Origin: Candidatus Parcubacteria bacterium
Lineage (GTDB): Bacteria; Patescibacteriota; Minisyncoccia; JACPXH01
Assembly: GCA_016196625.1 (NCBI GenBank)
Contig: JACPXH010000007.1
Location: 86,461 to 150,460, forward strand
Direction: 5' to 3'
Length of the DNA: 64,000 nt
In this document: positions 45,560-49,670 of the stretch, piece by piece
Numbering within the stretch: position 1 is the first letter of the stretch
How the letters are laid out: every line of letters begins with the position of its first letter
Position numbers and translations under genes: made by a program
Notes under the pieces: model-generated
Databases searched by the model: none
What the model was told of the DNA's origin: nothing
The model's input: the letters and a program-made list of their open reading frames with translations, nothing else

Positions 45560-45875
45560 TGGAATTTCACGTCGCGGTGCCGCAAGGCAACGTAGCGGCT
45601 TTGCTGCTTTAACTGAAAATCTGGCTATATGCGGGAAAGTCTTGAAAGCCGTGAGTGCGACACAGTAGTTCCTGTAGCCATCTGGTATGGAACAAACTGG
45701 GAGCAAAAATCTCACGGATGAGACAATCCGCAGGAAAGATCCGAAAGGAAATCCTCAGACACTAATACGCCAGACCGACCACATGAATTCTGATGTGGCT
45801 GGAAGATAGAGTGCGATCTTCATGGCGACATGAAGTTGCTATGCGGGTGATCGCATAGCGCATAACAGTCATAAG
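45560..45875 (+). mobile_element. 23S group I intron 1 (~316 nt, ORF-less) in GGUAG|CGAAAUUCC region (~E. coli 1910); boundaries +/- few nt
   Basis: exon resumes cgaaattccttggcaggtaag; ggctatatgcggg, tcagacactaatacgcc, ggaagatagagtgcg blocks. Confidence 0.55.
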
Positions 45876-45908
45876 CGAAATTCCTTGGCAGGTAAGAAAG
45901 ATGCCTGC

Positions 45909-46172
45909 TCCGGCGGAAACGTCGGAGAAAAACCCGGCTTATAACGGTGAAGCCCGACGCGGTTGCAGTTGACAAGAGACTGCGTGAACCGCGGGGTGAT
46001 ACCGTGGGAAGCCGCCCGCCGAAGTGCGGGTTGGCCCCGTAACGACTTGTTCCGAGAGGAACAGAGCCATCGCGAGATATGTGGATGGCTAACACGCCGG
46101 CCCCTCCTTCGGGAGGGTGAAGATATAGTCTATGCCACCAGGAATGGTGGGCCACATGAAGTTCTGTCCCGC
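45909..46172 (+). mobile_element. 23S group I intron 2 (~264 nt, ORF-less) splitting CCUGC|ACGAAUGGCGUAA; boundaries approximate
   Basis: shared blocks ggcttataacggtgaagc, ataccgtgggaag, ccccgtaacgact, gaagatatagtctatgcc. Confidence 0.5.
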
Positions 46173-46472
46173 ATGAAAGGCGTAACGACTGGGGGACTGT
46201 CTCAACGAGGAGCCCGGTGAAAATGCAATGCCGGTGAAGACGCCGGCTGCCTGCAACTAGACGAAAAGACCCCGGGAGCTTTACTATAGCTTGGCATTGG
46301 CCATGTGTTGGGCATGCGTAGCATAGATGGGAGGCGTTGAAGGCTGGATTTCGGTTCAGCTGGAGCCGACAGTGAAATACCATTCTTGTTCGATGCTTGG
46401 TCTAACCGGATCCGCAAAACGGATTTGGGACCGTGCCTGGTGGGTAGTTTGAGTGGGGCGCTCTCCTCAAAG

Positions 46473-47449
46473 CCGGTTGATCTCCTTCGGTCAATCGGCG
46501 GGGGACATCTCGAAACCCGAGATGAAACATTCGGCTATATGCTGGAACATCCGTGGTACTCGCGGGTAGTGAAATTTCACTGAAAATCTCGCGGGTGGCA
46601 CCCATAGGTCGGCGGACAACCAGCAGGCAACCCGCACTCGAAATATCGAGCGCGGGGAGTCCTCAACGACTATACGCCGAACCGAGCACGCATAAGTGCT
46701 CGGATGATATAGTCTGATCTTCTGGGCAACCAGAAGCATTGCTGCTCGCATCGTTCACGGTGCGGCAGCGAGACCCAAGATATGCATTCCAACAGGATTG
46801 AGAAGTACAAGCAGAAGCTGAAACTCACGAAACGCCAGAGGCAGATAGTGGTGGGAGCGGTTCTCGGCGACGGGCATCTGGAGACACAAGATGCCGGGAG
46901 AACCTATCGGCTGAAAATCGAACATTCTGTCGGACAGCGCGCTTATGTTGATTGGTTGTACGATCAGTTGAAACCGCTGGTAGGTACTTTACCCAAGGCG
47001 CGTGTCAGGACGAGAACGTTTCCCAGTGGATATGTTAGTACGGGAGTCAGTTACGGTTTTGCGACGTACTCCCTCGGAGCCCTGCGCTTCTATGCGCAGC
47101 AGTTCTATCGAGGGGGAGAGAAGATCGTTCCTCGATTGATCGGGAAATTGTTGACGCCGACATCCATTGCCATCTGGTACTTGGATGACGGCTCGGTCAA
47201 ATCGAATCGACACCGAACCTTCGTCATCCATACGTATGGATACGCACGGCGCGATCTGCAGCGTTTGCAAAGCGCGCTTGAGCAGTTCGGTATCAGGACC
47301 ACCTTACACACGCAAGTGCGGCTGTCCGGCCGATATCTGCGGTTGTATGTGGTGTCGGAATCGGCGGCGACATTCAGGGCGCTTGTCGAACCGATCATTA
47401 GAGCAATTCCGCAAATGCATTACAAGTTGGGGAACAAATTGCCTAAAAG
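46473..47449 (+). mobile_element. 23S group I intron 3 (~977 nt) with LAGLIDADG endonuclease, splitting CUCAAAG|GUAACGGAGGAGC
   Basis: cggctatatgctggaacatccg; ctcaacgactatacgcc; gatgatatagtctgatc; ORF stop codon overlaps exon 2 start. Confidence 0.6.
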
Positions 47450-47453
47450 GTAA
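46782..47453 (+). CDS. LAGLIDADG homing endonuclease (double motif) in 23S intron 3
   Basis: VVGAVLGDGHL and IAIWYLDDGSV. Confidence 0.8.
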   Translation: MHSNRIEKYKQKLKLTKRQRQIVVGAVLGDGHLETQDAGRTYRLKIEHSVGQRAYVDWLYDQLKPLVGTLPKARVRTRTFPSGYVSTGVSYGFATYSLGALRFYAQQFYRGGEKIVPRLIGKLLTPTSIAIWYLDDGSVKSNRHRTFVIHTYGYARRDLQRLQSALEQFGIRTTLHTQVRLSGRYLRLYVVSESAATFRALVEPIIRAIPQMHYKLGNKLPKR

Positions 47454-47629
47454 CGGAGGAGCTTATAAGGTCGGCTAGCTCCGGATGGACATCGGAGCGG
47501 TCCTGTAAAGGGATAAGCCGGCTTTACTGCAAGGCCAACGCGCCGCGCAGTCGCGAAAGCGGAACTTAGTGATCCGATCGTACATTGTAGAATGGCGAAA
47601 GCTCAACGGATAAAAGTTACCCCGGGGAT

Positions 47630-47949
47630 AGACCCTAAAAGGGTTGTTGTCTAATCCCACAGCAATGTGGGAAGCGTACGGCTTATAACGGTGAACCAGA
47701 GGCGGTCTTTCCTCGCTGCTTGCGAGGTTTTCGACCTCTTAGGAATACCGTGGGAAGCTGCCCGCCTCAATTTTGCGAAACAAAAGTTGGGCGGGTTAGC
47801 CCCGTAACGACTGATCTGAAAGGAGAGGTCCGATGCACTATCGTGCTCGGACAACACGCCGTCTCCTATCATTGAAAGACCACGCCATGGTCTGCGAAGA
47901 CCTAAAGCGGGTGATAGGATGAAGATATAGTCTAATCCGTAAAGGATTG
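47630..47949 (+). mobile_element. 23S group I intron 4 (320 nt, ORF-less) at peptidyl-transferase centre GGGGAU|AACAGGCUG (U2449/A2450 E. coli numbering)
   Basis: exon1 ...cccggggat; exon2 aacaggctggtagtgcccaagag; terminal G; gggtgataggatgaagatatagtctaatcc. Confidence 0.7.
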
Positions 47950-48001
47950 AACAGGCTGGTAGTGCCCAAGAGCCCCTATCGACGGCACTGTTCGGCACCT
48001 T

Positions 48002-48460
48002 AAGACATTGGGGTGCTACGACAGCAATGTCGTATCTTCGTTCAATGAGCGAAGACGAAAAATCTGGCTTATAACGGTGGACTCCATATGGTATACTGAA
48101 CATATGGACAATACCGTGGGAAGTTGATTCGAAGCTCTATGAAAGAATATATTCCGCTGATATTTGCGTGGATATTTCTTGCCATGGTTCTTGCGTTCGC
48201 TGTTTACATCATAGCGAACTTTAGAACGTAGTAAGCTGCATGAAGGGTTCGAATTTAACCCCGTAGAGACTTGCCGTTTTGAACGGCAGATAGCTGCATG
48301 CATATAGCTATAATACGCCAGCCCCCTCCTCCGCTCGCACAAGCGAGCTACGGAAGAGCATAGCCTCATGCGAAGAGGCCTTGCCCGCCGAAGCTCGAGC
48401 AATGCGAGAGCGAAGGTGGGGTGAAGATATAGTCCACGCTGTTAGTAATAACAGAGAACG
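48002..48460 (+). mobile_element. 23S group I intron 5 (~459 nt, ORF-less with AT-rich filler) after GGCACCU (~E. coli 2500); 3' boundary +/-2
   Basis: exon2 (ta)cgatgtcggctcgccacatcctgg; ggggtgaagatatagtccacgc. Confidence 0.55.
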
Positions 48461-48555
48461 TACGATGTCGGCTCGCCACATCCTGGAGGTGAAGCAGCTT
48501 CCAAGGGTTCGGCTGTTCGCCGATTAAAGTGGCACGCGAGCTGGGTTCAGACCGT

Positions 48556-48830
48556 AACTACATAATGTAGTGGCGGCTCTGTCAAGTAATTGACAGATGC
48601 ACAAACTGACTCATATCGGTGAAGTCCTCGCATTGCACATTGACCTGTCGCACGCGAGGATAATACCGAGGGAAGCGCACTCTGCATGCTTTGCGGCAGA
48701 GTGTCGCCCCGTAGAGACTTAGCCCATGAAGGCTAGAGTCGCTCTGAATGAGCGGCTAAAACGTCAGTCAACCGCGCGAATGCGCGGTTGGTGGTATAGT
48801 CCATGCATCGAGTAATCGGTGATTAACATG
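48556..48830 (+). mobile_element. 23S group I intron 6 (275 nt, ORF-less) splitting AGACCGU|CGCGAGACAGG (E. coli ~2590-2596, I-CreI/I-CeuI region)
   Basis: reconstituted exon agaccgtcgcgagacaggtcgg matches AGAACGUCGUGAGACAGUUCGG; terminal G. Confidence 0.65.
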
Positions 48831-48893
48831 CGCGAGACAGGTCGGACTCCTATCTGTTGCAGGCGTTGATGATTGAGGAGAGTCGTCCCTAGT

Positions 48894-49670
48894 AAACAAA
48901 AATTGCTACTTCGCGGAGTAATCCGCGATGACAATTCGGCTAATAACGGTGGAATCTCAACTTCTTGTCTCTGGTTGTGGACACACGAGTGGCCTCGGTC
49001 CGCTATTCGTGAGATAATTACTTGAGGACCAGAACAAGCATTGAGACAATACCGTGGGAAGTCGATCAAACATAGATCTTGCTTATATCGCTGGTTTTTT
49101 GGACGGCGATGGCAGCTTGATGCTCCAAGTAAAGAAACGGAAAGATGGAAGATTGCGGCGACGGTTTATGTGCACGATCTGTTTTTACCAAGACAGTCGC
49201 CATGAGCAGCCGCTCCGCTGGATTCGAAAAACTCTTGGCATCGGCTACGTATCGCGTCGGAATGACGGCATGAGCGAACTTCGTATTAACGGTTTCGCGC
49301 AGGTTCGAGATATCCTGACTGCGCTCAAGCCGTTCATACGATTCAAGAAGATTCAGGCGCGGGCGATGCTCAAAGCCGTAAATCTCTTGAGCGCTAAATC
49401 AAGTGTCCATTTGACGCGCGTTGAACTGCTGGAGATTGTTGAATGCATCTTGGCAATTCAGCGTAGCAACTATGCAAGTAAGGCGAAGAAAACTCAAGAT
49501 AGGCTGATCAAAATGTTTGATTTGACCCCGTAACGACTGGATTCTATCGGTCAAAAACCAATAGAGGAAGATGGTGCCACGTGTGCGCCATAACACGCCG
49601 ACCCCTCCTTTGCCAAAGGCTTCGGAGGGTGAAGATATAGTCTACGCTCCGAGTGATCGGAGACTACGTG
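48894..49670 (+). mobile_element. 23S group I intron 7 (777 nt) with single-motif LAGLIDADG endonuclease, inserted inside the sarcin-ricin loop (CCUAGU|ACGAGAGGACC; between U2656 and A2657 E. coli numbering)
   Basis: exon1 ...gtccctagt (ends U); intron ...ggagactacgtg (ends G); exon2 acgagaggaccggg; inter-intron exon 48831-48893 is exactly 63 nt as in E. coli. Confidence 0.7.
49054..49533 (+). CDS. LAGLIDADG homing endonuclease (single motif, I-CreI-like homodimer type), GTG start inside conserved ataccgtgggaag block
   Basis: LAYIAGFLDGDGS. Confidence 0.8.
   Translation: MGSRSNIDLAYIAGFLDGDGSLMLQVKKRKDGRLRRRFMCTICFYQDSRHEQPLRWIRKTLGIGYVSRRNDGMSELRINGFAQVRDILTALKPFIRFKKIQARAMLKAVNLLSAKSSVHLTRVELLEIVECILAIQRSNYASKAKKTQDRLIKMFDLTP

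Follow-up and report, generated by a model that had tools for sequence, protein, structure and literature searches.

The 23S rRNA gene analyzed here lies in a 64,000-nt stretch of DNA from a Candidatus Parcubacteria bacterium (contig JACPXH010000007.1, positions 86,461 to 150,460; hereafter the window), and it very probably carries seven group I introns, at Escherichia coli positions L1931, L1951, L2262, L2449, L2500, L2593 and L2656, that are old, site-specific lineages of two structural classes. The gene spans 42936..49888 (+), or 6,953 bp, and is 3,564 nt long once the seven introns, which are crowded into positions 45558-49670 of the window, are removed; intron DNA accounts for 3,389 bp (49%) of it. 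The case for this reading is built on the observed intron positions, cores, covariation, guide pairing and relationships to other introns.

The bacterial large-subunit (LSU) model of Rfam (LSU_rRNA_bacteria) matched the gene with 1414 and 243 bits, aligning to it in pieces separated by large gaps, several of which contain Intron_gpI matches. After in silico splicing, reference positions 1798-2843 (domains IV-VI) formed one collinear high-scoring segment pair with an intron-less bacterial 23S rRNA gene (NZ_AP027616.1, L001 in our set; offset of +50, checked at helix 69, the peptidyl-transferase center (PTC) and the sarcin-ricin loop (SRL)). The universally conserved PTC, A-loop and SRL sequences are intact in the exons, and the exons between introns measure 20, 309, 188, 51, 93 and 63 nt, against E. 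coli coordinate differences of 20, 311, 187, 51, 93 and 63. The E. coli site numbers are based on the E. coli sequence and its modified positions (U1939, C1962, U2449, C2498, A2503, U2552, U2585 and A2602). They agree with the site names of a published survey (PMC11270868). NZ_AP027616.1, as the sole full-length match in the E. coli collection, was also tried as the source of E. coli numbering and was rejected, as its 23S is not of the E. coli type. That record is a 2.9-kb RefSeq "E. coli plasmid" consisting of a non-E. coli 23S rRNA gene and is probably an assembly contaminant.

In all seven introns a guide pairs with the intron's own 5′ exon in a P1 helix that places a U.G at the splice site, and the exon bases flanking the introns are 45557/45874, 45893/46159, 46467/47442, 47629/47950, 48000/48463, 48555/48831 and 48893/49671. 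The i1 guide, the exon ligated over i2, and the P1 helices of i4, i6 and i7 were read by eye from the sequence. Intron i1 (45558..45873 (+), no open reading frame (ORF)) follows U1931 (U1931/A1932), and it is identified as a 316-nt insertion there because the closest relative, locus L061 (95-99% identical in 23S exons), lacks it and retains the empty site GTTAAAGTAGCGAAATT (in fuller form, GGGTGTTAAAGTAGCGAAATTCC). Its P1 is GUUAAAGU/GCUUUAAC with the U.G at the splice site, its guide (GCU plus GGAAUUUC) pairs with the 3′ exon AGC-GAAAUUCC, and its best BLAST matches are L1931 introns in other genomes. A 20-nt micro-exon (45874..45893 (+); E. coli 1932-1951, the same length as the E. coli coordinate difference) with the sequence AGCGAAATTCCTTGGCAGGT, uninterrupted in L061, separates i1 from i2. 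Intron i2 (45894..46158 (+), 265 nt, L1951, no ORF) has the P1 GGCAGGU/GCCUGCU with a U.G; its removal gives the exon CCUUGGCAG-GUAAGUU-CUGUC-CCGCAUGAAAGG and restores helix 71 (GGCAG-GUAAGUU-CUGUC) with its conserved 7-nt loop. This junction has U at -1 and a terminal G, as the rules require, and coincides with the classical L1951 site; the i2 ortholog in L061 is 83% identical.

Intron i3 (46468..47441 (+), 974 nt, L2262) contains an endonuclease ORF, and its P1 is UCUCCU/GGGGGA with a U.G. Its removal restores the helix CUCCUCC/GGAGGAG with the loop UAAAAGGUAAC, and its 3′ boundary, AACAnnTTG followed by exon CCTAAA, recurs in the L2262 introns of 11 other loci. Intron i4 (47630..47949 (+), 320 nt, no ORF) interrupts the peptidyl-transferase ring at L2449 (U2449/A2450), with the P1 GGAU/GUCU and a U.G, and the guide GUUGUCY is also found in same-site introns. 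For i5 (48001..48462 (+), 462 nt, L2500, U2500/C2501, no endonuclease ORF) the P1 is GGCACCU/GGGUGCU, and the guide GACAUUGGGGUGC perfectly complements the ligated exons GCACCU and CGAUGUC, with U2500.G at the junction. The I-CreI/I-CeuI site at L2593 is occupied by i6 (48556..48830 (+), 275 nt, no ORF; P1 CCGU/GCGG with a U.G), and i7 (48894..49670 (+), 777 nt, L2656) lies inside the SRL after U2656, between AGU and ACGAGAGG, with an endonuclease ORF in P6 and the P1 UAGUAA/UUGCUA with a U.G. The elements TTGCTACTT...GATGACAATTCGGCTAATA are common to i7 and the same-site introns of 8 other loci, with up to 504 nt alignable. Intron-less sites for i3 and i7 read GGGGCGCUCUCCU joined to CCUAAAAGG and CCCUAGU joined to ACGAGAGGACC, respectively.

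A first-pass annotation had proposed seven group I introns amounting to about half of the 7-kb gene, and the collinear alignment restored by removal, the P1 guides and the cores bear this out, as does the total intron length. Its coordinates for i4, i6 and i7 were exact, and its placement of introns in the peptidyl-transferase ring (L2449 and L2500), at the I-CreI/I-CeuI site and in the SRL was correct. For i1 the length of 316 nt stands, but the register (45560-45875) was shifted and the site given as about 1910 is really L1931, while for i5 the proposed 48002-48460 was off by 1-2 nt. Larger corrections were needed for i2, drawn at 45909-46172 and so about 14 nt off: the true exon AAGUUCUGUCCCGC, part of helix 71, had been taken for intron, AAGTTCTGTCCCGC, taken for the intron end, is exon, and the insertion is at L1951 and not between CCUGC and ACG. 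The i3 boundaries of 46473-47449 were 5-8 nt away from those found here. A comparison with known LSU intron positions, which the same annotation had proposed, shows that sites 1931, 1951/52, 2593 and 2656/57 are named in the survey of such insertions (PMC11270868).

Two structural classes can be distinguished among the introns. Class A (i1 and i3) matches Rfam Intron_gpI, and class B comprises i2, i4, i5, i7 and, as a variant, i6. The search with the Rfam group I model that the first-pass annotation had suggested (RF00028, gathering threshold of 50 bits) returned 70.4 bits for i3, 49.7 for i1 (E 1.4e-10), 31.1 for i5, 21.6 for i4, 18.7 for i7 and 18.1 for i2. We aligned 27 ORF-less class-B introns from eight insertion sites and many phyla, with i2, i4 and i6 as the members from the window. 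RNAalifold recovered P2, P3, P4, P5, P6 and P9 from this alignment, and P7 and P8 were added by hand as a pseudoknot. The resulting structure, P2-P9 including the P3/P7 pseudoknot, has 47 pairs in 8 helices. In it 92.7% of the cells are paired, against at most 43% when pairing partners are slid, and 30 of the 47 pairs show changes on both sides, with P7 invariant. The variant i6 illustrates this well, with the compensatory replacement of CCGGC/GCCGG by CUGAC/GUCAG in P3 and another compensatory change giving UCGGU/ACCGA in P4. Two hairpins, P7.1 and P7.2, stand between the 5′ strand of P7 and the 3′ strand of P3; in i2, i5 and their relatives they lie between GACU and ACGCCG (for example, UGUUCC-GAGA-GGAACA and GCCAUC...GAUGGC). 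By these extra hairpins class B is IA-like, an assignment made at the level of the IA subgroup as a whole.

A class-B profile built from 16 introns of other genomes, with no sequence from the window, was run over the 64 kb with nhmmer. It detected i2 (E 5e-32), i4 (9e-19) and i6 (2e-14, over profile positions 21-280), and the matches to i5 and to i7 each came in three pieces, broken by the insertions within these introns. Strong matches were confined to these five introns and the third intron of the 16S gene, and two weak, partial matches (E ~1e-3) fell in the first 16S insertion and in i3.

Four blocks of 12-14 nt are near-identical between introns, with 6-7 matches against 0.2-1.2 expected, and they had been taken as the mark of seven closely related introns forming one recently proliferated family. 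The blocks are real and far above chance, but they occur in i2, i4, i5, i6, i7 and one 16S intron and not in i1 and i3, which belong to the other class. They are also the invariant core of the class-B ribozyme (P3-J3/4-P4, P4′-P6, J6/7-P7 and J8/7-P7′), and a two-block pattern was found in more than 120 genome contigs, mostly of Patescibacteria, with others from Eremiobacterota, Actinomycetota, Chloroflexota, Acidobacteriota and Planctomycetota. Pairwise identities among i2, i4 and i6 are 43-57%, no closer than those between class-B introns of unrelated phyla (all-pairs background of the multi-phylum alignment: median 54%, 5-95% range 47-66%). BLAST aligned the paralogs of the window only over 14-35-nt pieces of the core, with nothing alignable outside it, and no BLAST similarity was detected between i1 and i3. 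For six of the seven introns, the best matches were same-site introns elsewhere, with which they have in common the guide and P2 sequences specific to the site. Each of the seven sites was found again among the 120 rRNA loci of public genomes that we had fetched with the intron core pattern. The exception is i4, whose top match is its paralog i2: the two are alike over ~86 nt of core plus P6, with P6 similar at 86% over 35 nt. In addition, the L1951 intron of L061 appears as a mosaic whose 5′ half is orthologous to i2 and whose P7.1-P8 part resembles i7 (L061:2297-2421 versus window 49522-49647), the 3′ half being 84% identical to i7 over 128 nt, which suggests recombination between introns at different sites. 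The similar P6 and this mosaic therefore indicate that some exchange between sites does happen; the introns themselves nonetheless appear to be old, site-bound lineages despite this recombination between paralogs. From these comparisons, the notion that the seven introns form one family that recently spread within this gene by transposition to new sites looks largely refuted, and we consider it highly improbable.

Besides the two signs of exchange between sites, several further points weigh against our reading of seven intact introns in old lineages: i1 and i5 end in A (45873 and 48462) and not in the canonical G; the Rfam gathering score is passed by i3 alone, with i1 0.3 bits below it and i6 unmatched; we infer the actual splicing of the seven introns from their sequences; the operon of the window may not be the genome's only rRNA operon; and the class-level taxon of the host is uncertain, its relatives' NCBI labels being coarse. 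Some segments could then be degenerate relics or expansion or intervening sequences (IVS), or the whole operon could be a decaying pseudogene, and the loss of the endonuclease gene from five introns, the two missing terminal Gs, the low Rfam scores of most introns and the true non-intron hairpin insertions in the 5′ half of the same gene would all fit. Against this, all seven introns keep a U.G-bearing P1 guide that fits the exon, the class-B helices P3, P4, P6, P8 and P9 are intact with compensatory changes, and the PTC, A-loop and SRL sequences are preserved in the exons at exact spacing. Terminal A is common among same-site introns elsewhere, which argues for a conserved state instead of decay, and one rRNA operon is usual in CPR (candidate phyla radiation) bacteria (PMC11270868). 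We therefore hold it to be very unlikely that the segments are anything other than spliced introns.

The terminal A itself follows a clear pattern. Introns i2, i3, i4, i6 and i7 end in G, and in other genomes a terminal A was found in 8 of 14 introns at L1931 and 22 of 58 at L2500, against 0 of 65 at L1951, L2262, L2449, L2593 and L2656, all 65 of which end in G. The i1 and i5 junctions appear not to be in doubt, as far as pairing, alignment and exon spacing can tell: that of i1 follows from L061, where the site is empty, from the U.G of P1 and from the pairing of the guide with the 3′ exon, and that of i5 from the guide, which fully complements the ligated exons. Ending i1 with a terminal G, at a junction between G1933 and C, was rejected, as it would give a G-C pair in place of U.G at the cleavage site and break the P10 register, and ending i5 at G48460 would leave UA inserted in the PTC, contrary to the guide pairing. 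The P1 and P10 guides thus set the 3′ junction right after the A in both introns, the P9.0 register puts the A in the usual place of the terminal G, and the guanosine-binding pair of P7 is unchanged, meaning that the site has not been re-tuned for A. These observations leave room for excision of i1 and i5 by a variant route, either with slow or inefficient ligation or with hydrolysis at the 3′ splice site leaving a fragmented but functional 23S. We think such a route unlikely: in both introns the guide pairs with the two exons, which points to continued selection for ligation, and a bacterial 23S intron without a terminal G has a precedent in Coxiella. By its title, a 2007 report by Raghavan is said to describe a Coxiella 23S group I intron lacking the canonical terminal G; this intron, reportedly at L1917, whereas the A-ending introns here are at L1931 and L2500, is also said to self-splice still. 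It is possible, though we put it forward tentatively, that A-ending group I introns are a common, site-restricted variant in bacterial 23S genes (~57% at L1931, ~38% at L2500 and none at the other five sites).

Two of the introns encode predicted LAGLIDADG homing endonucleases, I-SceI-like in i3 and I-CreI-like in i7. The i3 ORF (46782..47453 (+), 223 aa) is a LAGLIDADG_2 gene (Pfam PF03161, E 7.5e-35) matching I-SceI over its full length (residues 3-220, E 8e-17), and its final 12 nt, including the stop codon, fall in the 3′ exon. The i7 ORF (49054..49533 (+), 159 aa) encodes a single-domain LAGLIDADG_1 protein (Pfam PF00961, E 2e-9) similar to the I-MsoI, I-CvuI and I-CreI families (E 1e-25 to 1e-14; I-MsoI and I-CreI aligned over residues 8-155), and its GTG start is inside the P4′/P6 core block. 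The first-pass annotation had counted two ORFs starting in the ataccGTGggaag block; this one (49054) lies in the range it covered, and the second is in a 16S intron (33729/33741). In the 135-nt P6 extension of i5, tblastn with 21 ORFs of L2500 introns found no endonuclease remnant, as only translations of core blocks matched. A 30-codon hydrophobic ORF, MKEYIPLIFAWIFLAMVLAFAVYIIANFRT, is present in that extension at 48145-48237; it is unlike the other L2500 endonuclease ORFs and is probably fortuitous.

We propose that every intron would be transcribed as part of the pre-23S rRNA, where the internal guide would pair with the 5′ exon and present the U.G wobble at the splice site, and that the intron would be removed by the standard two-step, guanosine-initiated transesterification, giving religated exons that should match a functional 23S in sequence and spacing. 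Each intron would belong to a lineage that is bound to its site and widespread among CPR and other bacteria, and these lineages would have spread between genomes through homing by LAGLIDADG endonucleases, of which two genes would remain, in i3 and i7, with the other five introns left ORF-less. The homing activity of the two predicted enzymes is likewise something we infer. Intron homing by LAGLIDADG enzymes is an established way of spread. For one enzyme from the CPR, I-ShaI, cleavage of its insertion site has been demonstrated (PMC11270868).

Besides the introns, a family of hairpin insertions is present in five copies in the 23S leader and 5′ half (42813-42919, 43332-43424, 43790-43894, 44578-44732 and 45273-45363). 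The copies are 90-155 nt long with the shared ends CCGNTGCTTCGCANCGGGAATGTCWAATG ... TTTGGATTTCCGNTGCGGAGCANCGG; two of them are 94% identical over 69 nt, in the two that were folded the stems are long and nearly perfect (z -9.7 and -7.6), and two occupy the helix-25 and helix-45 positions that are classical for IVS. Neither end motif was found elsewhere in the window, and a search of 121 fetched loci with the 5′ motif alone gave no match. It is this element, and not the introns, that looks recently proliferated within the 23S gene, and it is probably an RNase III substrate. An RNase III gene is encoded at 27591-28280, ~3 kb upstream of the rRNA operon, and is relevant to the processing of such long hairpin inserts.

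The operon runs from the 16S gene (31075-34886) through tRNA-Ile (35145), ~4.8 kb of protein genes, tRNA-Ala (40023), ~2.8 kb of protein genes and the 23S gene to the 5S gene (49954). The 16S gene (3.8 kb) contains three intron-like insertions at approximately 31745-32095, 32364-33306 and 33626-34420, presumably near E. coli positions ~516, ~789 and ~1052. The first has group-I-like core motifs and a weak profile match (E 1e-3), the second, at 57.7 bits with Rfam, belongs to the class-A group I introns and contains a LAGLIDADG_3 ORF (32518-33282), and the third is a class-B intron whose ORF (33729-34292) starts in the ataccGTGggaag block; together with the seven in the 23S gene, there are therefore about ten introns in the operon. 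The spacer between 16S and 23S is unusually long, with protein genes at 35218-40022 and 40096-42935 that include a phosphotransferase-family protein, a cyclophilin, a fragment of a major facilitator superfamily protein, an RmlD-like reductase, an S-adenosylmethionine methyltransferase and a mechanosensitive-channel-like protein.

The location of the operon is chromosomal, because its flanks hold the housekeeping genes for ThyX, GatB, ThrRS, RNase III, TrmD, FtsW, RpoB and FtsK; rpoB and rpoC are both present in the window. The nearest 23S relatives are metagenome-assembled genomes (MAGs) of Patescibacteria, and the host is an uncultured CPR/Patescibacteria bacterium. We call it no more precisely than that, since "Candidatus Saccharibacteria" and "Gammaproteobacteria", under which NCBI lists the binchicken MAGs, look unreliable as labels. 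Among organellar LSU introns, L2449 is the site of the yeast mitochondrial omega intron, which encodes I-SceI, and L2593 is that of the Chlamydomonas introns with I-CreI and I-CeuI. Those introns and this gene have in common the positions of insertion (PTC ring and 2593) and the endonuclease families (I-SceI and I-CreI), but here the I-SceI-like enzyme is in the L2262 intron and not at L2449, the I-CreI-like enzyme is in the SRL intron and not at L2593, and the host is bacterial.

Introns at L1917, L1931, L1951 and L2593 are known outside the CPR from Coxiella, Simkania, Thermotoga and cyanobacteria (PMC1995217). Coxiella has two group I introns around a 34-bp exon, one of them at L1951 as here, where 20 nt separate L1931 from L1951; its two introns compare with seven in this gene, and the hosts are unrelated. 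The cyanobacterial, Thermotoga and Simkania introns (Haugen et al. 2007, PMC1995217) share L1931 and L2593 with this gene. Those at L1917 and L1931 are IC1-like without P2, the one at L2593 has a P7.1/P7.2 extension like that of class B, and their LAGLIDADG genes are of the single-motif type, with ORFs that overlap the core of the ribozyme. No more than three introns are found per gene in that set, all with endonuclease genes, whereas i1 and i6 here are ORF-less.

The closest parallel is within the CPR itself, where group I insertions in rRNA genes were noted by Brown et al. 2015, as cited by Tsurumaki et al. 2024 (J Bacteriol, PMC11270868). One survey found insertions in 82% of CPR 23S genes, and the group I introns among them are concentrated in the 3′ half around the PTC, with recurrent sites including 1931, 1952, 2593 and 2657, variably present LAGLIDADG ORFs, and removal of the insertions from transcripts (PMC11270868). 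The host clade is the same, and the insertion hot spots 23IS6-14 match the recurrent sites of this gene. LAGLIDADG_1 and LAGLIDADG_2 ORFs present or absent at the same site, and short non-intron hairpin inserts at IVS sites of the 5′ half, are also seen in both. With seven introns and ~5 hairpins, ~4 kb in all, the gene stays inside the range of that survey, which extends to 16 insertions and 5.75 kb in a gene (PMC11270868), and it is a well-endowed but unexceptional case of an already described CPR phenomenon. In no essential respect does the gene depart from what that survey describes. The survey classed introns with the Rfam model alone, which under-calls class-B introns of the kind found here, and we found no discussion of the terminal nucleotide in it (PMC11270868). 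It also reports almost no introns in Saccharibacteria genomes, yet L061 bears that label, which we consider unreliable.

In conclusion, this gene is a clean case, resolved in full, of a CPR trait that is extreme but has been documented before. Its value for annotation is in the exact junctions of seven introns, a class-B profile that catches introns missed by Rfam, and the correction of two insertion sites. Two modest leads are new, the terminal A of the L1931 and L2500 introns and the hairpin insert with its five copies, though neither amounts to a discovery by itself. If the A-ending introns are indeed a site-restricted variant, they would represent a tolerated or selected change in the second splicing step, for example a slower ligation that holds back ribosome production where the organism has just one rRNA operon. 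More broadly, ribosome production in this bacterium would require many ribozymes to work correctly within the PTC and the SRL.

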